DNA of 62,142 nt, the filler included, from Basidiobolus ranarum (taxonomy: Eukaryota): NCBI GenBank assembly GCA_040143965.1. It is 9 parts of 9 records of this genome, joined end to end, with 100 filler letters (N's around TTAATTAATTAA, not from the genome) between each part and the next. Parts side by side here need not be neighbours in the genome. Positions count along the whole stretch, not along the records: positions 41,528 to 48,336 come from JASJQH010008115.1; 8 more parts are not named here. One strand, written 5' to 3'. The translations under genes and the position numbers were made by a program. Positions within the stretch are counted from its first letter, which is position 1. The number at the start of each line of letters is the position of its first letter. Below the pieces are notes generated by a model. It worked only from the letters and a program-made list of their open reading frames with translations, had not been told where the DNA came from and made no database searches. Of this stretch, positions 11,829 to 52,000 are shown in pieces.

Positions 11829-11882
11829 CAGTGATGCTTTACAAGTCGTAAGTTAGTGAAAGACTGAAAAGTAACCCGCAAA

Positions 11883-13757
11883 ATGCACATTACGACCCAA
11901 GTCATCACTGGTCTTACTCTGGCTGCTGTCGCCTCAGCATCCGTAACCTTTCCGTATAGTTTTCCCAATAGTTGTATTGCATCATGCTCTATGGAAGCTG
12001 GTAAGAAGTGTTGGTCAGATTACACGCATGATCAAAGTAGCCCATACTTTATAGAATCGTTGTCATGCCCATGTGGTACTGGTTCCAAATCCACCCAGTA
12101 TAACAACGAAATGACAAATTGTATGAGCAACAACGATTGCGGATGGTGGGATACCCTCACTTATAACTGGGATAAGAGCTCTGTGTGTGACTGGTACAAT
12201 GAACACAAAGATATGATCAAGTCACACGTATCTACTACAACGCACAAGTCTACAAAAAGATTAACAAGTCGCAGTTCCCAACACAAAACTTTTAGCAAAT
12301 CGACTGACTCATACAGCAGTGTTCAAAGTGTTTCGTCTCAAAATGTTACCACATTACCGAAATCACACAGCTTTGCTGGAACCTCTGCAAAAGTATCCAA
12401 CAAAGTGAAGACTGCTTTGCATAGCAAAAACTACACGACCCTCGTAATTCCCTCATCCATCAGGGGTAGTGCAACAGAGGATCAACAGCATACCAAATCA
12501 CATGATGATAATGGGACTGCTGTCTCCCATAACAGCATTGCAACCACATCTCACAAATACAGCAGTGCGGCTATTTCTTCACCACAATCCCTTTCAATGA
12601 GTTCAAAAACTAAGGAGATCAAGCTGAGCAAGTCTACCGCAAGTCACGCAACTCATTTGTCCACAGAGAGTACTGAGTCAAAGACCCAATATCACACCAA
12701 GTCTCATTCTGAGAGTGAGCTTTCTTTATCTGACCACAGCGCTATCACTACTGCATCTGACCCCTCCTCAGTGAGCTTTGAGACCTCGAAGGTCCCTACA
12801 ACCACTGAAGCCCAATCTACTTGGATTCCCAGACCATCGAACTACTTCCCCTTCCCACCCCCCAACAAGTGTATGACTGACTGCTCGTTCAAGGCTGGCA
12901 GGAAGTGCTGGTCCAAGTACACTCAGGATATTCATAGTCCTTACTTCGTAGAGTCCTTATCGTGTCTCTGTGACAGCAGCAACCCTGGACACTCCCAATT
13001 CATCAGCGACAGTGCATCCTGTATGATAAGTAGTGATTGTGGGTTCTTTGCCATGATCAAGGCAGAGGGACAGCAAAGCGCAATTTGCAAGTGGTACAAT
13101 GAGCACAAGCAGGTAATCAAGCCAACTGAAAGTCACTCAACCACTGAGACCCACAAAGCCAGTGCTCCAAGTGTACATTCAGAGTCAACTGAAAGCTCGA
13201 CTGCTCACAGTTCTACTTATGATGTTACTTCCCAAGAGTCAAGCAAGTCAACCCAGTCTCCCAAGGCTTTTATGACAACTATGTCGCATAATCCTAGCCA
13301 TACTTTAAAATCTGAGTCTAGCTCAGTTGAGACCACTAAGTCGAAATCAAATACAACTGCAAGTCAGTCATCCTCAAAACCGGTTAAAAGTAGTGAACCA
13401 AAGAGTCAAGTATCTGTTGACATTTCCAGGTCCGATAAGTATACCTCAAGTCGCGCAGCTTCTTCCGCTGAGAGTACTGAGTCAATGACCCAGCATTATA
13501 CTGAATCTCATTCTGAGAGTGAGTTCTCTGTATCTCACAGCAGCGCTATCACTTCCACATCTCATCTTTCCTCAGTGAGCTCTGAGACTTCAAAGGTCCC
13601 TACTTCTACCGAGGCTCAACCTACTTGGATTCCCAGACCATCGAACTATTTCCCCTTCCCACCTCCCAACAAGTGTATGACTGACTGCTCGTTCAAGGCT
13701 GGCAGGAAGTGCTGGTCCAAGTACACTCAGGATATTCATAGTCCTTACTTCGTAGAG
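11883..13757 (+). CDS. Secreted Ser/Thr-rich (mucin-like) protein with at least three 8-Cys CFEM-like domains; 3' truncated by the contig end
   Basis: Intronless ORF with signal peptide MHITTQVITGLTLAAVASA. Domain pattern C-x3-C-x7-C-x18-CxC-x15/16-C-x5-C-x15-C-x-WYNEHK occurs twice in full, plus the start of a third copy, separated by S/T/H/K/E-rich spacers. Confidence 0.88.
12666..13757 (+). repeat. Intragenic direct repeat with 804-nt spacing (12666-12953 vs 13470-13757)
   Basis: gagagtactgagtca...tggattcccagaccatcgaacta...ccttacttcgtagag is duplicated. The Cys-domain part is nearly identical at DNA level, and the contig breaks inside it. Confidence 0.95.
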
Positions 13758-13857: not shown

Positions 13858-14966
13858 AGAGGGACCGTAGGAATAACATTACAACATTCTCAGATGGGAG
13901 GGATTTTAGTATCTCAAGGTTTAGGAATTCCATTTGCCACTGTACCAGGCTGGCGTTGGTTGATGGGCGGAACACTAGCCCCCGCTATTTTGCAAATGAT
14001 CCTTTTGCCATTTTGCCAAGAAACCCCTCGATTCTTAATTATGAATGAACAATACGACAAAGCTAGGGATTCCTTACTAAGACTACGAAAGGGATGTCAA
14101 GTTGACTTAGAGTACGATGATATGCTACGAGCACAAAAGGAATCCGGGTCAACTGGTTTCTCAGGAAATACAGCAACCGTAGGATCTTCAATGCGTTTGA
14201 GTATAATTGAGGTAGCTAGACCTCCAGTAGAACTTGGTGAGACTAAGGTGGCTGCACCCTTAAATATAATAGAGATCCTGAAAAGTAAGAAGTTACGTAA
14301 GATGGCACTTGTCGGAATTACTTTATTTGCTCTGCAACCACTAAGTGGAATGATCGGGATCGTATACTACTCTACTTCAATCTTTGAAAAAGTATTTGGA
14401 GCGGCTAAAGCCTCTTATGTGACTCTTGGTATTGCATCCATTAACTTTCTACTGACATTTTTGTCGGCTGTGGTTATTGAAAAAGCTGGACGGAAATTAC
14501 TTTTGATTATCAGTGAGGTTGGGATGATGGTAGCCTCGGCTCTTCTTGTTGTGGGTTCTACCCTTGCTCTTGATCCATTAGTCATTGCAGCTGGTAGGAA
14601 TGATTCATTTACACCCTTTCAAAAGCCCAACTAACATTTCAATTGTCTAGCATTTTTGTTTGTTGCTGCATTCGCTATCGGCCTTGGACCTATTACAGTG
14701 ATTCTTATTCCAGAATTGATGCCTACGAAGGCGGTCAGTGCAGTTATATCTATGGCGAATAATGTTGGTTGGATGTAAGTAGTGGGAAAAACGTTTATCT
14801 CGAATAGAAACTAACGTTAGTACTATGTAGATGCACTTTCGCAGTAGGGCTACTCCTCCCTTTATTGACCGAAAGTTTAATGACTTATACGTTTACGATT
14901 TTCGTTGGAACCAATCTTTTTGCTTTAGTCTTTACTTTACTTTTTGTTCCTAACAAAAAGAAGTAA
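13858..14966 (+). CDS. MFS sugar porter (GLUT-like), 5' truncated
   Basis: RGTVGITLQHSQMGGILVSQGLG, GWRWL, LPFCQETPRFL, QPLSGMIGIVYYSTSIF, IEKAGRKLLL, FAIGLGPI...PELMP. Two GT-AG introns (about 14594-14650 and 14775-14830). Stop TAA at 14964-14966. Confidence 0.9.
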
Positions 14967-41527: not shown

Positions 41528-44500
41528 TAGGTCGCCATTCTCGAAAAGACGCAATCCACTCTGGATAATCAATACTTTATCTTGATAAATTAGCGACCGC
41601 GCGCCATAGACCTCTCCTGAATATGATCGCTCTGCGCTGTGATAGTACACATCTGTCTCAGCTGAGTACCAAGAATCAGGTTGATCATGCGGCCCAAGAA
41701 TTATGAGAGCACCAACTAGACCGTGATGCTTATGATTCCTCACATCTGCAAAATCCTGAAGGAGTATGGGGCCCAGTGGTTGGTCAGCATGCCAGGTATA
41801 GGTCCTAGTTTTCTTGGGAGGAACTGTCTGATCCGGATTGAAACCGACATTACTTCCGTCGTTATCACGAACATCAAACTTAAGTAAATCAGCCCGGATG
41901 GAGACATGGTTAGAAACTCTACGTCTCGGATTATCAGCTGGAACTTGAGGCGCAAAAGGCTCGGGGCGAATTTTGCTAGGTAAGTTGTTTGTCAAATGTA
42001 CTTGAATGAATTCACCAGTACGACCGCGAATGATCAATGGCTCCAAATGGCCTTTATGGTAATTGAGGCAGCCGTGTGCTCCAGTAGCGTTCACCCATTG
42101 TTCCGATAAGGGTCCTCTATACCCCTTCAGGCAATACACAATGGCAAATGGATCCGTCCAGTTATTGTAATTGTATTGAAGAATCCGTGGTTGTGCTTCT
42201 ACCATATATTCACGTAATCTTGAACGCTCCGCAACAGGTGGAGATAGCATATCCATCCCATGATACCCGAATGGATCATTATTATTTGGAAGTGAAGGAA
42301 GATGCTCTTTCACCTTGTCGTGCACCCGTATAATTCCCCAACAACCAATCCATAGATCATCAATACCCGATAATTTGTACAAGTGGTCGCCTGGAGAGTA
42401 ATCTGATAGTACATCCAAAGTGAACCCTTCGGAGATGCCTATGGTTTGCTGATTGGATACTTGCACTTCGGAGTTTGTGAAGAACCTCGTCCATCGCATG
42501 CCATGAATTTGGAAACTGTGGGATTCTTCATGTGCACCTTGAACTAGTCGAATCACTATTCTGTCTCCAGGATAGGCCTCGAATAATGTAGTTGATGGAT
42601 CACCATATTTAGTTTTGCTGCTAAACTGTTCCGAGGGATCCACATCCCTCCTCTCTACTAGCGGCTCATTCCTGTAGTTCAGTACCATGATTCCTTGATC
42701 TTCATTGGGGTCGCTATTAGGGTTGATGGGATTATTTCGAGAGTCAAAGGCTGGTGTAAAATCCCCGATGAATTGAACTTGCTCGCGGAACGATTGTCCG
42801 GAATCTGGGGTCAATATAACGGAGCTGACTCCATCTCGCTTTTGTTGACTTAAATCAGAAGGGTTAAAGTAAAAGGAGCCTTCTGGTTCTACAGGTGCTA
42901 GACCGTAAAGCCCCTTCTTTTGGCGATAATTCGCAAATAAATGGTCGTGGAAGAAAATATGCCCTAAAGCATCATCGATCCACCATCTATTAATCAAATA
43001 CTTTCCAAAGCTGGCCCCACTGATAAAGTTCCATCCAACGGAGGCTCCATCGCTAACTAGTACATCGAATTTAACGAGATGAACGTGCATGCCAGCCTCA
43101 CCTGCATGGTTAAGTGCCTGGCAGCGTGGAAAGTCTTCATCAAAGGCTGTTCCCGGTATAAATCTAGGTAGTTTGTTGGTGAATTTGTTGACCCCAATGG
43201 TATTCTCATTCATTCGTAGAACAATTGGCTCAAATTTGCTTGGCTTTTTTAAATCAACAGGGGTTTCTTCCTCATCCAAAATGTATAAGTGCCCATAAGG
43301 ATAGTGCCAACCATGCTTGTTGTACTCAAAATGGCGTAGTGATATTGAAATGTTGGCTCGCACCTCCTTTGGCTGACGTGGAGTGGGGATTCTCGTGAAA
43401 AGATTACCAATTTGCGGGTCTCTATTCATATTGAGAACCTCCAATTTAGAGGCAGCACGATAGTCCGAATCTTCCGGTATCTTACCAAAGATCTCAACAG
43501 GCCAGGGAACCCTGGGTGATTTTTGACCAACGACGCCATTAATAAAATTAGGAAATCCTGGGTGGTTTTTGTCCTTCAAGGGTGGGTCTGGACGTGTAGG
43601 CAGGATCTCTAGTCTTTCAATGGGAGTACCATCTGGATACTTACCCTTCCCTTCTTGAAAACGATCTAGCACTCGAATCATACCCCACATTCCAGACTCA
43701 AAATGTGGATATAAGTGACAATGCCAGATAACATCTCCGATCGCCTTCAACCTGGACCCAGCACCGTAGTGAATATCAAGATCCCATGAAGTCTGCGGCG
43801 ACATAGAGAAAGAATCAATCGTAAGACTTTCGCGGTCACCACGTAAGGCACTCCATTGATGAACATGTAAATGGAAGACATGAGTTTCCTTAACTCCGGC
43901 ATGTACCACCCTAAATTTGATTGGATCGCCAGCATAGGCTCGGAAAATAGGTGTAGCAGGATCTCCAAACATCCAACTAGAATGATGCTGCTCTTCACCG
44001 TTTATATTTAACTTTTCGCCCTGCCGGATTTTTTCATATATTACGAACTCGCGATTTCTCATGGGCTCAGAGCGATAGTTTAGAGAATTGGTCATTCTCT
44101 CAAGTTTTGCGGTCTTATTCGTACATGGATCAATGGGACGAGGATTGAAGTTGATGACATCTGTCTCATCATGGAAAAAAGAGACAAATTCGCGAAATGA
44201 ACAGTCAGGATGCGTGAACTTGTCTTCTTCGTCCAAGAATCCTCGTTTAGGACATCCACCATACCTTTTAGGAGGATGAATATCTGCAATAACTCCATCG
44301 TCTGTGGGCTCTCCAGTGATCGGATTAGTCCAAGTCGATCCTCTTGGCTCTACAATAATCGCAGCAAATAGTCCATGGATGTGTGTGCCTTGGTCAGTTC
44401 CATCGTAGTCACCATTATTGGATATCAGGTAGGTTCCCTCCTTAAGGCACGGCCAGCGATATTGTATTTCTTGATTGAATCCAACTGTAGAGTCTGGATT

Positions 44501-45031
44501 TCTACCCACTGCCGAGCCGTCATTTTCCACACTTTGTCCAAAAAGATGAGGATGAAGACTAACTCTTCGTCCCTTAATCTCGTTTTTCAAGTGGACATAT
44601 ACGTGATCTCCTTCGTTGCAACGAAGTACCAAAGGGCGTACTAAAGGGTCCATATGCAGATTGACCTTTTTCTTAAGACCGTCCTTTACTTCATTCAGAA
44701 TAGAGCTGCGTATCTTTCTTAGGTAGTTTCGATTTCGACTCAATGTAAACATTACTCCGTTAAGGTCGATATCTCCGTATTTGTTATATACTATAGGCAT
44801 TTCAATAGCCACAACGTTATACGAGCGTACGAAAGCTTGAGTGAGATTAAAGTTTGTTGTTGCCGAATAATTGCCATGAGGGGGAGCAAAAATTGATGCT
44901 CCTCCATAATCAGGATAAACAAAGCTTGCGGAGCAGTAGTCAAGTAATAATAAGCACCAGGTAAGTAACCACAGGCTATACTTGACTAGCGAATATAGCC
45001 AATTGATAGAACTGAAATACTGTAGCAACAT
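41528..45031 (-). CDS. Large MnxG-like multicopper oxidase (putative manganese oxidase) with N-terminal signal peptide; intronless; 3' truncated by the contig end
   Basis: At least 1168 uninterrupted codons, colinear with Bacillus MnxG as recalled: VYNKYGDIDLNG, PLVLRCNEGD, GSTWTNPITG, FREFVSFFHDE, EEQHHSSWMFGDPATPIFRAYAGDP, GVKETHVFHLHVHQW, IWHCHLYPHFESGMWG, PGFPNFI, MHVHLVKFDVLVSDG, FFHDHLFAN, QGAHEESHSFQIHG, QQTIGISE, HKHHGLVGAL. Confidence 0.92.
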
Positions 45032-45085
45032 ATCTCAATCTTGAACTAGTTGGATGAGTTGACTTTAGACTGAAGGACCGAGCCC

Positions 45086-45091
45086 TTTATA
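45086..45091 (-). promoter_or_regulatory. TATA box upstream of the MnxG-like gene
   Basis: CCATATAAAGGG on the minus strand about 55 nt upstream of the ATG at 45031; no Shine-Dalgarno-like sequence before the ATG. Confidence 0.55.
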
Positions 45092-45649
45092 TGGCCCGAG
45101 TTCTTATCTCTTGAAGCTAGCATCAAGTTGTCAGTAAAATCAATATGCTAAACATTCGGTATAGAGTTGAGTGGCGTATAGCAATTCTTTCTTCGAGATG
45201 AAAGAGGTAGCAGCCTTTGTTACATCTCCAAAAGAACATGTCTTTTGAACGCTGGTATAGATATAAGCTTAAACCAGATTGAGTATTAAATGAGTCGGCG
45301 CTATTGGTATACTTGAAATGTGTTTAGGCGTAGTCTTTGTCGGATACATTTCAGCTAGCTCGATTGTGAATACGGTGGCTTAACTGTCCCGGGATCATTT
45401 ATGTTGAATAGAAATCTATATGTGCCTTGGAAATGTAAATGCTAGAAACGAGCCCATTCTTGAGATAATATCCTATATTATAGTCCTTTCTGCTCTAGAT
45501 AATCGCGATCGTTGCATATTCTCAAATAATCCACAACCATGATGTAGCACGATAGAAGTGCCTTATCGGTCATCATTTATGCAACAAGCGCCCTATGACA
45601 ATACTTCTAACTACTTGATTTTTGTCGAAAAATAACCTGTGATGTAGCA

Positions 45650-46690
45650 ATTATCCCTCATTGTGTACTGAGTTAAACAGGAAACTGCCGATATTGTTGA
45701 GAGGAAATACATTAGTTGGTTTTCATTGGGCAGTAGACGTTGTATCAATAATCTATCCGTCAATAGTAGAAGGTATGTTTCTCAAAATATCTGTAGAGTT
45801 TGTGGATACATGTGTAACTGCTTCTTGAATTGCACCGGTTTACTAATGCGAAATTCTGTGAAGCTAGACTACAAGGCACAATAAATCGAAGCTCGGCTTG
45901 TCTATTGTACAAACAAGCTTGCCGCCCATGCCAAAATAGTCTGATATTGACACATACGATGTGGTGTCAAAGCATTCCAACCCCAAATGTCCACAGCCAA
46001 TACCTTGACACTATCCTTGGATAAAATTGTCGTCCACAAGCCATGGTAGTTTCCGACCAAAAATATTTTCATATTTGTAAATCCATATAGGCAGTCCGCC
46101 ACCAAGCTACGCATAATAACTTGCATACTCGTAGCTCTCACGGTCAAGGGGTACTTAAATTCACCAACTTGGGTGGAATTAACGGACACGCTAGGCGCCT
46201 AAATGTAAAGGAAATAGCTTGGGATAGTAGAGGATGCTGAAAACCTACTGTTACCCAGTTTCCTGATTATTTCGTTGCCCAAATTCGAACCAGAATAACA
46301 CTGATGGATCTCATCCTGTGTGATCACGCTGCTTGTGAGATAATTAGGTAAATTAAATCCTATGAGATGCACCTGGTTCCACATGATCAGAAGACTCAGT
46401 TATGTTGTCACAAAACCTATCCGAAAACTCAAATTAAATGTACTTTATTTGATCTCCATAAGAACGTGGTCCTACCTACCAAATTTGGAAATATGCATTC
46501 AAATAAAATCCACCGCTATCGTGAGATTCCATTTCCCATAAGCAAGTCCAACGAGTGATGGGGAGCACAATCAAAGCTGAACTACAAGGTGATTCAGCCA
46601 TCAAATCTGGTTTCATACACTCAATACTTATGGAAGCCGCATACACGCCATCTGAAGGTTTATAGCACACAGGCTCATCAAAGACCAAAA
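45650..46690 (-). pseudogene. Decayed coding-like region of unidentified family
   Basis: ORFs 46199-46384 and 45902-46189 are in the same frame, separated by one stop, and read as continuous protein-like sequence. No family recognised. Confidence 0.3.
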
Positions 46691-48436
46691 TGGTGCAGAT
46701 TTACGATGCCTGTCTAATAAGCGGCCGGTTGACTTGCTCACTTAGGTACGACATCTAGTGCTACGAAAATATCATAGGTATCACATGTCATTCTAAGCTC
46801 AAGGGTCTCGGTTGTATTGTCGGATCAGCTTCTCCAGAGCGTCTTAAGAGAGCACTATTCTTCGGAATTCCTTATTCAATGAAGAGCATTTATGGACTAC
46901 TGTAATTGTGACAAATGAGAACTTTGACAAGCAGGTGCCTTGCGCAAATCCCTGACCACTGAAATATGCTCTTTGTCTACTTTTTTACACAAATCTCAGT
47001 ACGATCTAGCTAGTAGATAGATATACTTTTGTAGGATTCTAATATTGTAATATGGGAGATGGAGAATACACATTACAGGAATGGGATCAGAGGGCTCAGC
47101 ATATGATATCGCCGATGAAGAAGCGGGGTTTAGCAAGCCTGGTGCTCCAACACTTGGAATCTACTGCTGATGCAGAGTTATCTCTTAAAATCACTTACCG
47201 TAAATGACTCTTTTTACTCTTTACCAATACGTGACGTTTGGTTACTCTTACCAACACTGTAGTTTCAAAAAGGTGAAAATCGAGTAAATAAAGCCCATCC
47301 AGTATACGGGTGAGAAATTGGACTGGTGGAATCAAGGTGGTAATATCTCACTTGTATACATTGGATGCACCTCCTCCGCTGTATACCAGTGAGATATCTC
47401 TCCCGGATACTACAGATGGGGCGAATGCTCTTCTAGTGCAACGCTTAGTGTAAGCGTGTGGAAGTTAGCTCAATGATTTGGATTTTATTATGGATTAAGT
47501 GGATGAACATTTAAACTCAGTGGCTATGTACATGTATCCAAGCGCGCTGAAAAGAGTGGAGATAGTGACGAACGGAATAGAACTGATACTTACGACATCA
47601 ATGGTGGTATTAGCAGTAGTGCTAATGATACCGGGGAAATCAGTCTACTGACTATACCTCTGGCAAAGGTGCAAATGGAAATATTGCTTAGCACTCGCAA
47701 TGGTAATTGACTGCTAAAGGGAAGGTATAGTGGAGATGAAGCAGGTGATTACCACTCTGTAAAAGTTGGAAGCGATGATGGTGATGCCAATGCCTGTTAT
47801 AGAGGTGATAAAGGTAATGGGGACAGAATATAGCAAGAGTTTGCTACACTTATTAAGAACGAAGAGAAGCGTGTCTCAATATCGATAGATCATGTCAATC
47901 GTTGACGCAACATTTTCGATTTGTAACTGTTAATTGGATGGTTCAAATACTCTCTCGATTGGAAGACCATGTCTGAGGTCCTATAAATAGTTTTGTGTAA
48001 CATGTGGAATTTAGGGCTCACACAATTTGACTCCTCGGAATTAAAAGTGGAAAACATCAAAAAGAAAAGTAGTATACTGATGTACTAAGCAACCTACTTT
48101 ACTATTCATAGTTGCATCCTTCATATCCTTCGTTGTGATATTACGACCCTAACTGGTTTAACATATTGATTCAAGAGTCTCCAACAGTTAAGGTAGGATG
48201 TATCAGGAGAAGTATTGGCAAAATATGGGCTGTTTGGAGGAACTTTAGAAAAGTGGAGTTGTGAATAGCTTAGTGAGATAATTATTTATTATCCAGAAAT
48301 GAAGCATTTATACATTTTGATGGAAATACAGAAAACNNNNNNNNNNNNNNNNNNNNNNNNNNNNNNNNNNNNNNNNNNNNTTAATTAATTAANNNNNNNN
48401 NNNNNNNNNNNNNNNNNNNNNNNNNNNNNNNNNNNN

Positions 48437-49042: not shown

Positions 49043-52000
49043 TTTGTATTTCTCTTACTTCTAACTTATATGTCAATAATTCAAATTGTGCTTCAGATAA
49101 AGGTTCAGTGAAGATGGCAGCAATTAATTCTTTAATAGGGCATAATACTACTTCTATTGTATCATTCTCTATTGCTTCTCTAACAAATGATGCTTAATAT
49201 TCATATTTTTTGTTCTAGCATGAAACATAGGGTTTTTAGCTCAGGAAGTAAAACTCTGATTATGTTCAAATACAGCAATAGCACATAATTGCCTGTATCC
49301 TAAGTCTTTAAGTAACTTACTTAACCACATGTCTTTTGTGTAGTAGCAGATGCAGCCATATACACTGCTTCTGTAGTCTGAAGTACTACAGTTGGTTGCT
49401 TCTTCCTATTCCAAGTTATGGTTCCATTACCATAGAGAAAAGAGTACCCCATGGTTGATCTTCAATCATCAAGGTTTCTTCCCCAGTTTGAATCACTGCA
49501 GCCTTCAAATTTTTGTGCATCAGAAGTAGCAGAATAATCAAGAACTAAATCTACAGTTCCTCTCATATACCTGAATAAATGTTTTACTGCAGTTTTTTGC
49601 TCAGATCCTGGATTTTTGAGATATCAGCTGACAGTTCCCACAGCCAGAGCAATATCTGGACATGTACCAACCATTGTATACATTAATCTGCCCATCATGG
49701 ATTGATAAGAGAACTCCTGGCTGAGATTTGAGTCATGTTGGGCCAAATTGGACAATGTTTTGATTAATTTCACATTGGGATCCATTGGCATTGATACAGG
49801 CTTGTTATTCTCCATGCTGAAGTGCTTTAGGATATCCAGCATGTATCTAGACTGATTCAGCATGATTTTTTGAATGGGCTTATCTCTATTGATTTGGATT
49901 CCAAGAAAGTAACTTAATTCACCCATATCGGTCTTCTGAAATTGGTGTGATAAGCTGCTTTTCATCTTATTAAGTGCTTCTAGATCATTTGCAGCTATGA
50001 TGAAGTCATTGTCATACAGTGCCAAGATAAGGATCCTATTTCCGGTTGATCTGATGTAAATACTGTGATCTGCTGTGCATTTTTGGAATTCCAATGATTC
50101 CAAATAGGTACCTAGCTTGTATCACCATGCCCTGGGTGCTCACTTGAGTCCATATAGTGATTTTTGCAGCATACAGATCATGTAAGATGTTTTTGATGAA
50201 CAAATCAATCTGGCTGCTCCATATAGAACTCCTCTTCTGAATTTCCATTCATCAAGGCTGTTTATACTTCCATTTAATGCAAATCAAGGTTTTGGATGGT
50301 TGAGAGTGCCAGGATTAATCTGATGGAGCTAAACTTGTTTGCTGGAGCAAAGGTTTTATTAAAATCAGCTCCTGAGTGTGAGAATAAACTTTTTTCAACT
50401 AATCTTGCTTTGTACTTTTATATGGTTCTATCAATTGGTTTTTGACTTTGTAGACCCATTTGCAACATGTTGGGTTTCTCCCTGATGGTAGAGGACTTAA
50501 AACCCATGTTTGTTGTTGTGAGGTAAAGAAAACTCATCAGACTTTGCTTTCTCCCATAATATTTATTCTGGACAATCCTAAGCTTGATCTAGCATTAGTG
50601 GCTTATCACAGAATGCCGCATAACCATATACATTATCATTGAAAGTGTTCTACCAGTTCCCTGGCTTATTTCTTTCCTGCATAAGCTTATGGATCCTAAA
50701 TTATCCTCTGATGTAATTAGGACTGGAATTTTTGTTGAGAGGGGCTCAGATACAGCTGGAACTTTGTCAGACACTGCCTGAAAAGTGCTGATTATGCTTG
50801 CTGGATCAAGAACTGTGACTTGTGGTGAAACATTTGCTTTTCAGCAAAATTTACATCTCTGCACTTAATTAACTTCCGATTTTTGATAGTAAACAGTCAG
50901 TAGGCCTTGCATTAATCACAGTAACTAAGAAACATGCATTTTAGGCTTTTGGGTTCCAATTTAGAGCAGTTTTGAGCTGGAATTATGCAATACACTGTGC
51001 AATCAAAGATCCTGAGATGATCCACACTTGGTATTGTTCTATATAAGGCATCAAATGAAGTAGAATTAAGTAGCAATCTTGTTGGGCATCTGTTTTTGAT
51101 ATAGACTGCCATGGAGACACAATCAGTCTAATATTGGTAATCAAACTTTTGCTCATGTAATATTGATTTAGCCATCTCCACTGTTTTCCTATTAGTGCGT
51201 TCTTCAACTTCATTTTGTTGTGGAGTATAAGGTACAGTAGTTTCATGCTTAATTTGATATTTATAACAGAAACTACAGATGAGTTTCAAGCAGGAATACC
51301 AATCTTTCTTGTTTTTACATATGTTGGGAAGCTCCTGAATTGATGTACCATGTTTTGGAATCTTCTTTACTGGTTACTGATAGGGCTGACACAAATAGAT
51401 GATCCCTATCAGTGCTTACTTGACTTTCCTGATCCAATTTTTCTTATTTGCAATGATCCTTTTTGTGCAATCTTTGATTAAATGGCATGGTTTCTTGCAA
51501 TACTTGCAGCTGATGGCATTTGTATTAGGGGCACCATTATTGAAGCTCTGTTGGATGGTTTACAGCTCCAAATAATGCCTGATCTGCATTATTTGGCTGA
51601 GAATCAGATCTCCTGAATTCCTCATTCAAAAGCATAGCATAAATATATTCCATTGTTAAAGGCTCTGATCTCATTTCTGTGGCAATTATAAGATTCCCAA
51701 ACCAGTCTGGCAGGCTCCCAAGTAGTGTCATGACTAAGTCTTCTTCATTTAGAGGTGCTCCAATAGAAGAGAGCTGATATGCCTTACCTTTTCCAATTTT
51801 TATGATTAAGCATAGATTCATCTGAATTCATCTAAATTGAGAATGATTTCTCCCCAAGATTTAGCCTATTAGTCAGACTTTCAGTCTCATATAGTTCCTC
51901 AAGTGTTTCCCAAGCAGTGTAGATATTTTGGCAGATGGTATATGCCTCATTTGAGAGTCTCCTAGATTTAGACACAGTGTAGAGAATGCTTCCTATGCTT

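Follow-up and report, generated by a model that had tools for sequence, protein, structure and literature searches.

An MnxG-family oxidase gene on a contig of Basidiobolus ranarum

The DNA described here, referred to as the window, is a stretch of 62,142 nucleotides (nt) from the fungus Basidiobolus ranarum that comprises nine contigs of approximately 6.8 kb each, joined by N44-TTAATTAATTAA-N44 spacers. One of these contigs, which occupies positions 41528–48336 and measures 6809 nt, carries a gene for a six-domain multicopper oxidase of the MnxG family that is neither a laccase nor Fet3. The explanation advanced for this oxidase, namely a genuine fungal gene that descends from an old, single entry from bacteria and encodes a secreted MnxG-family enzyme, is considered probable as a whole. 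The open reading frame (ORF) starts at an ATG at position 45031 of the minus strand, with an in-frame stop one codon before it, and extends through 1168 codons with neither an intron nor a stop, the contig end at position 41528 being the only point at which it is cut. This bears out an earlier sequence-only reading of the window, which had described an intronless ORF of at least 1168 amino acids (aa). The frame is colinear over residues 2–1168 with the orthologue of Basidiobolus meristosporus (K493DRAFT_374135; P0003), which continues for 153 residues C-terminal of the end of the frame, a region that contains an HLHGH motif and corresponds to domain 6. Similarly, the B. ranarum copy P0157 carries domain 6 with HLHGH, in a C-terminal extra portion of similar size to that of P0003. 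Domain 6, of approximately 150 residues, was sought across all contigs of the window and was not seen; it would lie beyond the contig end, and this copy is only putatively complete.

The oxidase is a 100% match to the GenBank model K7432_013123 (P0002) of B. ranarum, which lies on a 6809-nt contig. The deposited model begins at Met78, thus leaving out the hydrophobic N-terminus, and near residue 1098 it splices away the conserved RNHKHHG region, beyond which its last 21 residues form an unrelated tail. The orthologue P0003, 76% identical and located on a 127-kb contig, begins at the homologous first Met. Because P0003 is colinear from this residue, the uninterrupted frame from Met1 is a better gene model than K7432_013123. 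The features of the contig are collected in Table 1.

Table 1. Features of the oxidase-bearing contig, in window positions.
Feature	Position	Strand	Remark
MnxG-family multicopper oxidase, partial coding sequence, codons 1–1168, domains 1–5	41528..45031	-	Open frame; match to 9bxa_A
Arg1046, codon CGG, motif VSIRADLL, domain 5	41894..41896	-	His in nearly all relatives
Domain-3 copper motifs, residues 649–697	42941..43087	-	Other four trinuclear ligands
Domain-2 copper motifs, residues 384–448	43688..43882	-	Type-1 and four trinuclear ligands
N-terminal extension, residues 1–36, hydrophobic segment SLWLLTWCLLLL followed by CSA-S	44924..45031	-	Read as signal peptide or anchor
Upstream flank, 3.3 kb, eukaryote-like non-coding DNA	45032..48336		No ORF of at least 100 aa in any frame
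TATAAA	45086-45091	-	55–60 nt upstream of the ATG at 45031

Fold and domain organisation

A phmmer search of the PDB identifies MnxG chain 9bxa_A (E 1.5e-204, 685 bits), against which residues 68–1140 of the query align colinearly with chain residues 2–1015. The next sequence matches are two-domain laccases at approximately E 1e-7, and neither a three-domain fungal laccase nor Fet3 is matched in the PDB at E ≤ 1. In Pfam, the multicopper-oxidase domains are recognised in pieces only, with Cu-oxidase_3 and Cu-oxidase_2 above the cut-offs. An AlphaFold2 model of the window protein, built from a 12-sequence alignment, has a predicted local distance difference test (pLDDT) of 66.5 and a predicted template modelling (pTM) score of 0.64. 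In Foldseek this model superposes on 9bxa_A ('Mnx H340A complex from Bacillus sp. PL-12') with a query template modelling score (TMq) of 0.75 and E 3.8e-90 over 1102 columns, the window frame providing five of the six domains. For ceruloplasmin and for coagulation factors V/VIII the TM scores are 0.41–0.46, and for the three-domain fungal laccases the TMq is 0.18. Thus, the sequence-only reading was right to place the protein alongside MnxG over its whole length and not with fungal laccases or Fet3, and the superposition on the Mnx structure that it had proposed agrees. The model is of moderate confidence, with 230 residues below a pLDDT of 50, which detracts from the structural part of the argument.

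The window protein shares with the MnxG of Bacillus sp. PL-12 and SG-1 (MnxG-E3F3; 9bxa) the six-cupredoxin architecture, of which the frame encodes domains 1–5, a colinear sequence, the fold (TM 0.75) and the location of the type-1 (T1) site and half of the trinuclear ligands in domain 2, with the other half in domain 3. In contrast, the identity is only 35–40%, the Bacillus proteins fall in a separate, more distant clade and the host here is a eukaryote. In addition, MnxE/MnxF are produced together with the Bacillus enzyme and cap it, whereas the fungal protein displays a 67-residue N-terminal extension with a hydrophobic signal. The Pseudomonas putida-type MnxG belongs to the same superfamily but is much longer (approximately 1900 aa), and the similarity is at the level of domains: the window protein scores 256 bits against NF041487, the NCBIfam equivalog of this type, far under its cut-off of 3100, and is therefore not a Pseudomonas-type MnxG.

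Two eukaryotic candidates were rejected. Ceruloplasmin, hephaestin and Fox1 are likewise eukaryotic proteins of six cupredoxin domains and are secreted, as the window protein is predicted to be; however, the TM score is approximately 0.45 and the identity 11–13%. Ceruloplasmin has three T1 sites and holds its trinuclear cluster between domains 1 and 6, whereas the window protein has one T1 site, and its cluster ligands reside in domains 2 and 3. Fungal laccases and Fet3 have the same copper chemistry and are secreted fungal enzymes, but they consist of three domains instead of six (TMq 0.18) and give no significant whole-protein sequence match. Their motif order is also reversed, as laccases display the HxH pairs first and HCH last (HxH, HxH, HxxHxH, HCH).

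Copper ligands

The copper-binding residues are distributed between two domains. In domain 2, HVFHLHVH spans residues 384–391 and HCHLYPH-x4-M residues 437–448. The T1 copper is coordinated by H384, C438, H443 and M448, while H387, H389, H437 and H439 are ligands of the trinuclear cluster. The remaining cluster ligands are contributed by domain 3 through H649 and H651 of MHVH (residues 648–651) and H695 and H697 of HDH (residues 695–697). With its ligands split between domains 2 and 3, the trinuclear cluster is therefore positioned at the interface of these domains, as in MnxG. The assignment of each His to a copper follows the canonical multicopper-oxidase motif pattern. In a 55-sequence alignment none of the 41 bacterial rows departs from the 12 canonical ligands, and neither does any fungal row without a gap at the position. 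The motif order, with T1/HCH in domain 2 and two HxH in domain 3, is the same in the 9bxa alignment, and the four motifs quoted in the sequence-only reading are all present in the MnxG order that it had recognised. At the second T1 His the 9bxa chain displays an Ala, where Paenibacillus MnxG has His; the Ala is explained by the H340A mutation named in the title of the PDB entry. Several further near-invariant His positions outside the canonical centre are also kept.

The claim that the ligand set is complete holds for the canonical T1 and trinuclear centre but does not extend to position 1046, where a near-invariant His is replaced by Arg. His occupies this position in 13 of the 14 fungal and 39 of the 41 bacterial rows, and the departure counts against the explanation advanced here. 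The Arg is real, since the 84%-identical B. ranarum copy P0157 shares it; the B. meristosporus orthologue does not. Arg1046 may alter an accessory metal site.

N-terminal segment and partner subunits

Among 14 fungal and 14 bacterial proteins sampled, ten of the former and none of the latter have a hydrophobic window ahead of the core. In the model of the window protein a helix spans residues 12–30 and is followed by a low-confidence linker, the alignment with MnxG beginning at query residue 68. We infer that the N-terminal segment is a secretion signal peptide or a signal anchor, which would route the oxidase to the secretory pathway and the cell surface.

In partial texts of two publications, Bacillus MnxG is isolated as MnxG-E3F3 (PMC5622069, PMC13689576), and in the second of these, a 2026 review, MnxE/F form a ring through which Mn(IV) leaves the protein (PMC13689576). 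In the Paenibacillus locus L017 (1626–6663) an mnxD/E/F-mnxG operon is found in which three ORFs, of 220, 106 and 94 aa, precede mnxG. When the Paenibacillus MnxE/F sequences were used in an iterated search, these subunits were detected at three of 80 bacterial loci (L017, L051 and L043), all in one small Bacillus-type clade, and an iterated search of the 62-kb window finds neither MnxE nor MnxF. Because the subunits occur at so few bacterial loci and are not found in the window, the fungal oxidase most likely acts alone, and most probably works without an MnxE/MnxF cap, like most bacterial members.

Proposed activity

Since the canonical copper centre is intact, the oxidase is expected to be catalytically competent in one-electron oxidation, and the earlier description of the enzyme as probably active stands at the level of its intact catalytic copper ligands. 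In the mechanism proposed, the T1 copper of domain 2 would take single electrons from the substrate and the trinuclear cluster at the domain 2/3 interface would pass four electrons to O2, yielding water. The route from the T1 site through the trinuclear cluster to O2 is general multicopper-oxidase chemistry. The added N-terminal hydrophobic signal would send the protein to the secretory pathway, so that its site of action should be extracellular or at the wall or membrane.

The substrate is the part of the proposal on which the evidence divides. By analogy with characterised MnxG, Mn(II) is put forward tentatively, with roughly a third of our confidence attached to it; the enzyme might instead act on a different metal ion, for example Fe(II) or Cu(I), or on phenolic precursors of wall or pigment. 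Two observations weigh against Mn(II). The only member with demonstrated Mn(II) oxidase activity belongs to a distant clade and needs MnxE/F. Furthermore, 53 of the 80 best prokaryote loci are from Bacillota, 48 of these from Clostridia, and many are gut metagenome bins; the 48 clostridial loci argue against one uniform function of the family. The abundance of Clostridia is itself odd for a family of O2-reducing oxidases.

An enzyme that does not oxidise Mn, but serves as a wall- or spore-associated phenol or pigment oxidase, a ferroxidase or a cuprous oxidase, is a rival reading, and its probability is judged to be only slightly short of even. Multicopper oxidases are promiscuous and the nearest bacterial relatives of the fungal protein are uncharacterised. 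The MnxE/F ring that serves as the Mn(IV) exit in the review cited (PMC13689576) is confined to the Bacillus-type clade, the family is abundant in anaerobic Clostridia and residue 1046 is changed. Opposed to these points, the fold and the order of the T1 and trinuclear motifs match those of MnxG and the extra near-invariant His positions are kept, and Mn(II) oxidation is the sole biochemically defined activity of the MnxG family in the partial texts of two sources (PMC13689576, PMC5622069). The more specific proposal is that early-diverging fungi, here Basidiobolus and soil chytrids, have a secreted, stand-alone MnxG-type enzyme of bacterial descent that turns Mn(II) into Mn(III/IV) oxide on the surface of cells or spores, with no MnxE/MnxF. 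This full combination is regarded as unlikely. If true, it would constitute a eukaryotic Mn-biomineralising system unrelated to the laccase-like, peroxidase and superoxide routes of Dikarya.

Members of the family in fungi

The oxidase belongs to a multi-copy fungal family with at least seven gene models in B. ranarum and three in B. meristosporus. In B. ranarum, K7432_015839 is 84% identical over 913 residues, K7432_009757, 005044 and 009995 are paralogues of 54–57% identity, K7432_012581 is a C-terminal fragment and K7432_017654 is a further fragment. In B. meristosporus, two more paralogues (P0004 and P0007) lie on one 83,466-nt contig, and paralogues at 54–57% identity are thus found in both Basidiobolus species. 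Extending the search to shorter proteins brings only one additional fragment, again from B. ranarum.

Homologues of 42–48% identity are present in five chytrid species: Rhizophlyctis rosea (two assemblies), Borealophlyctis nickersoniae, Spizellomyces punctatus (1.47-Mb contig), Powellomyces hirtus (795 kb) and Fimicolochytrium jonesii, the last with two copies (P0016 and P0026) on one 459,799-nt contig. The orders of Borealophlyctis and Fimicolochytrium are from a taxonomy look-up and those of the remaining chytrids are assumed, the orders represented being, as we take it, Spizellomycetales and Rhizophlyctidales. The paired copies on single contigs (P0004/P0007 and P0016/P0026) could be local duplications.

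F. jonesii P0016 displays a long Cys-rich and Pro/Thr-rich N-terminal extension (alignment columns 1–300) and, at its C-terminus, a Ser/Thr-rich stretch followed by a hydrophobic tail (columns 1900–1988). These features suggest that P0016 may be a wall- or membrane-anchored form.

Bacterial ancestry

The genomes of at least 562 prokaryote species encode relatives of the oxidase. Clustering of the family at 50% identity gives 563 clusters when matches at E ≤ 1e-30 are taken and 1974 at E ≤ 1e-3. Two trees were computed by quick searches, with the Shimodaira–Hasegawa-like approximate likelihood ratio test (SH-aLRT) as the only measure of support. Tree 1 (55 rows, 1225 columns; IQ-TREE, LG+C20 with posterior mean site frequencies, PMSF) contains the query, 13 other fungal proteins and 41 bacterial representatives, the 659-aa partial protein P0107 being left out. 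The bacterial rows were picked greedily at less than 62% identity from a pool of the 120 best proteins plus the loci whose longest open frame exceeds 900 aa, and nine rows were then added by hand. The 14 fungal rows group together in a single clade (SH-aLRT 100), in which Fimicolochytrium P0016 and Borealophlyctis P0092 (chytrid group B) diverge first; Basidiobolus (100) then joins the six other chytrid proteins (group A, 100) at 99.

Tree 2 (48 rows, 1209 columns) was rooted on four distant representatives, including P0248, which scores 892 bits against NF041487 and is the closest to that model of five distant representatives tested. A true Pseudomonas-type MnxG for rooting was sought with NF041487 at E ≤ 1e-100 in 301 genomes, and none was found. 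The 10 fungal rows again constitute a clade (100), whose sister is a mixed bacterial group (98) of cyanobacteria, Myxococcota, Acidobacteriota, Bacteroidota, Alphaproteobacteria and one Actinomycetota metagenome-assembled genome (MAG), the two being joined at 100. Fungi and sister group lie within two more bacterial groups (100), the first made up of named Actinomycetota rows and the second of three unnamed proteins. Next outward, and two nodes further out, is a Bacillota clade (95), which includes the MnxG of Bacillus and Paenibacillus, and the remaining distant relatives fall outside this clade and all inner groups. The fungal clade is hence placed four supported nodes inside bacterial groups. 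The speed of both searches, their reliance on SH-aLRT and the many rows that fail the composition test are points to be set against this topology.

Among bacteria, the closest relatives are uncharacterised 'multicopper oxidase domain-containing proteins' from Leptolyngbya, Oculatella, Archangium, Belnapia/Roseomonas, Acidobacteriota and an Actinomycetota MAG (P0013–P0018 and relatives), which are 40–45% identical to the query over approximately 94% of its length. They are the sister of the fungal proteins on the rooted tree, possess the same ligand set and similarly have no MnxE/F within 3 kb. In contrast to the fungal proteins, the seven sampled have no N-terminal hydrophobic extension, and no function is assigned to them. 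Bacillus MnxG, with which the sequence-only reading had compared the protein, belongs to the more distant Bacillota clade, the one that contains the MnxE/F-bearing loci.

A profile built from the fungal members alone gives these 1821–2174 bits and the best bacterial proteins approximately 1500 bits, among the best 120 of 1906 matches. In three database searches the matches listed (for the fungal profile, the best 120 of 1906) include no named eukaryote other than Basidiobolus and the five chytrid species. Because the fungal clade is nested in bacteria, the bit scores leave this gap and no other named eukaryote appears among the matches listed, a bacteria-to-fungi direction with a single entry is well supported by the sequences. 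The tree proposed in the sequence-only reading thus turned out as it had anticipated, with fungal rows nested within bacterial diversity and few eukaryotic relatives. Its claim of horizontal acquisition stands as to the bacterial origin; a recent or private acquisition does not, the gene being common to two Basidiobolus and five chytrid species in one clade. A broad vertical distribution of orthologues in fungi, which would have told against that claim, is seen in part, in the chytrid homologues, but the distribution is patchy, not broad. In the scheme proposed, the ancestor gene would have entered fungi from bacteria once, long ago, and would then have duplicated, surviving in Basidiobolus and the soil chytrid orders Spizellomycetales and Rhizophlyctidales.

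What happened after this single acquisition allows a further possibility, that the gene moved from fungus to fungus, from the stem of Spizellomycetales/Rhizophlyctidales to Basidiobolus or in the reverse direction. Among the matches listed, named eukaryotes come from two distant fungal lineages only, and the chytrids are paraphyletic, with group B (P0016, P0092) branching first and Basidiobolus plus group A afterwards; vertical descent, moreover, requires losses in all other fungal phyla. However, Basidiobolus is sister to chytrid group A and not nested in it, so an old duplication with vertical descent fits equally well, the stems are long (approximately 0.5 changes per column each), and low-scoring members in other fungi may be missed in searches that give the best 120 matches. 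Transfer between fungi is thus possible, if somewhat unlikely.

A recent transfer to Basidiobolus alone, from gut or soil bacteria, would agree with the many gut Clostridia among the best prokaryote loci and with the 2–5% of Basidiobolus genes that look bacterial, 61% of them without an intron, in the main text of Tabima et al. 2020 (PMC7466969). Nevertheless, the Basidiobolus copies are allied with chytrids (99–100) rather than with a bacterium, the gut Clostridia belong to the far Bacillota clade, the nearest bacteria are approximately 45% identical, the same as the chytrids (44–48%), and two deep paralogue groups (54–57%) are common to both Basidiobolus species, which makes such a transfer very unlikely. 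An ancient eukaryotic gene inherited vertically without any horizontal transfer, to which the long stem and deep internal splits of the fungal clade could be ascribed, is highly improbable given the position of that clade four supported nodes inside bacteria on the outgroup-rooted tree and the lack of any other named eukaryote among the matches listed in three database searches.

Probable fungal residence of the contig

The oxidase is very probably a genuine nuclear gene of B. ranarum and not a contaminant. Gene-free length was measured as the longest stretch without any stop-to-stop frame of at least 100 aa. It amounts to 3302 nt in the oxidase contig and 2053–4766 nt in the other eight contigs of the window, whereas for 80 bacterial loci that surround homologues the median is 206 nt and the longest such stretch 1232 nt. 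In the upstream flank the longest stop-to-stop frame is 98 aa, three ORFs of the flank find no match in Pfam, and a repeat search of the contig returns short chance-level matches only. The homologues of B. meristosporus and the chytrids are located on contigs of 83 kb to 1.47 Mb with fungal record names.

Composition is consistent with this residence. The tetranucleotide correlation (r) of the flank with the other window contigs is 0.909, those contigs among themselves giving 0.925–0.972, and the GC content at third codon positions (GC3) of the oxidase, 0.40, together with its codon usage, is inside the spread of six other window ORFs (GC3 0.33–0.46). The k-mer comparison suggested in the sequence-only reading is hence compatible with the host but does not tell it from low-GC bacteria, the r value with the window being 0.78–0.87 for low-GC Bacillota loci and 0.75 for the oxidase gene itself. 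Since these loci score almost as well, the composition tests are given little weight. Fungal residence is further qualified by a codon comparison based on six short ORFs only and by the fact that, for the homologues, it rests on record names and the size of their contigs.

Bacterial contamination of the assembly, which the missing intron, the overwhelmingly bacterial family, the short contig (6809 nt) with no second recognisable gene and the similar k-mer profile of low-GC Bacillota DNA might suggest and which the sequence-only reading had named as an outcome that would overturn it, is scarcely credible when 3302 nt are ORF-free against at most 1232 nt in the 80 bacterial loci, when the best bacterial identity is approximately 45% and that of fungal orthologues and paralogues 54–84%, and when the fungal copies bear a hydrophobic N-terminal extension and form a multi-copy family in two Basidiobolus species within one fungal clade that includes chytrids.

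Novelty and significance

Proteins of this kind are known, and public databases already contain the sequences as 'copper oxidase' or 'cupredoxin' models without a name; the novelty lies in recognising that the MnxG family has a fungal branch with putative signals and that this branch goes back to one old entry from bacteria. A literature search found no paper on MnxG-like proteins in fungi or chytrids and none citing these locus tags. In excerpt, a 2013 survey of six-domain copper proteins places the MnxG relatives in bacteria and archaea only (Vasin et al. 2013, PMC3600357). The main text of Ciach et al. 2024 (PMC11291939) contains no mention of copper, multicopper, cupredoxin, laccase or manganese, and that of Tabima et al. 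2020 (PMC7466969) none of copper, multicopper, cupredoxin or oxidase; the supplementary gene lists of both may include the family.

The MnxG family is the best-understood enzymatic route to Mn oxide minerals and has been treated so far as prokaryotic. A stable, expanded fungal branch with putative secretion signals indicates that eukaryotes acquired and retained the fold, and the case is an unusually clean example of an old bacterium-to-fungus transfer common to two distant fungal lineages, which bears on how genes spread among fungi. The fungal enzyme is in addition a candidate for expression and assay as a single subunit, MnxE/F probably not being needed, and it provides a testable lead as to whether early-diverging soil and gut fungi oxidise Mn or other metals.

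Other features of the window

Further segments were noted on other contigs. A 630-aa open frame without a Pfam match (11868–13757, plus strand) runs off the end of the contig that precedes a sugar-transporter fragment (13858–14634, plus strand; PF00083, E 5.6e-35), which in turn begins at its contig edge. On the contig neighbouring that of the oxidase, a 165-aa frame (49624–50121, minus strand) matches the Pfam copia-type reverse transcriptase RVT_2 (E 1.7e-20) and represents a retrotransposon fragment.

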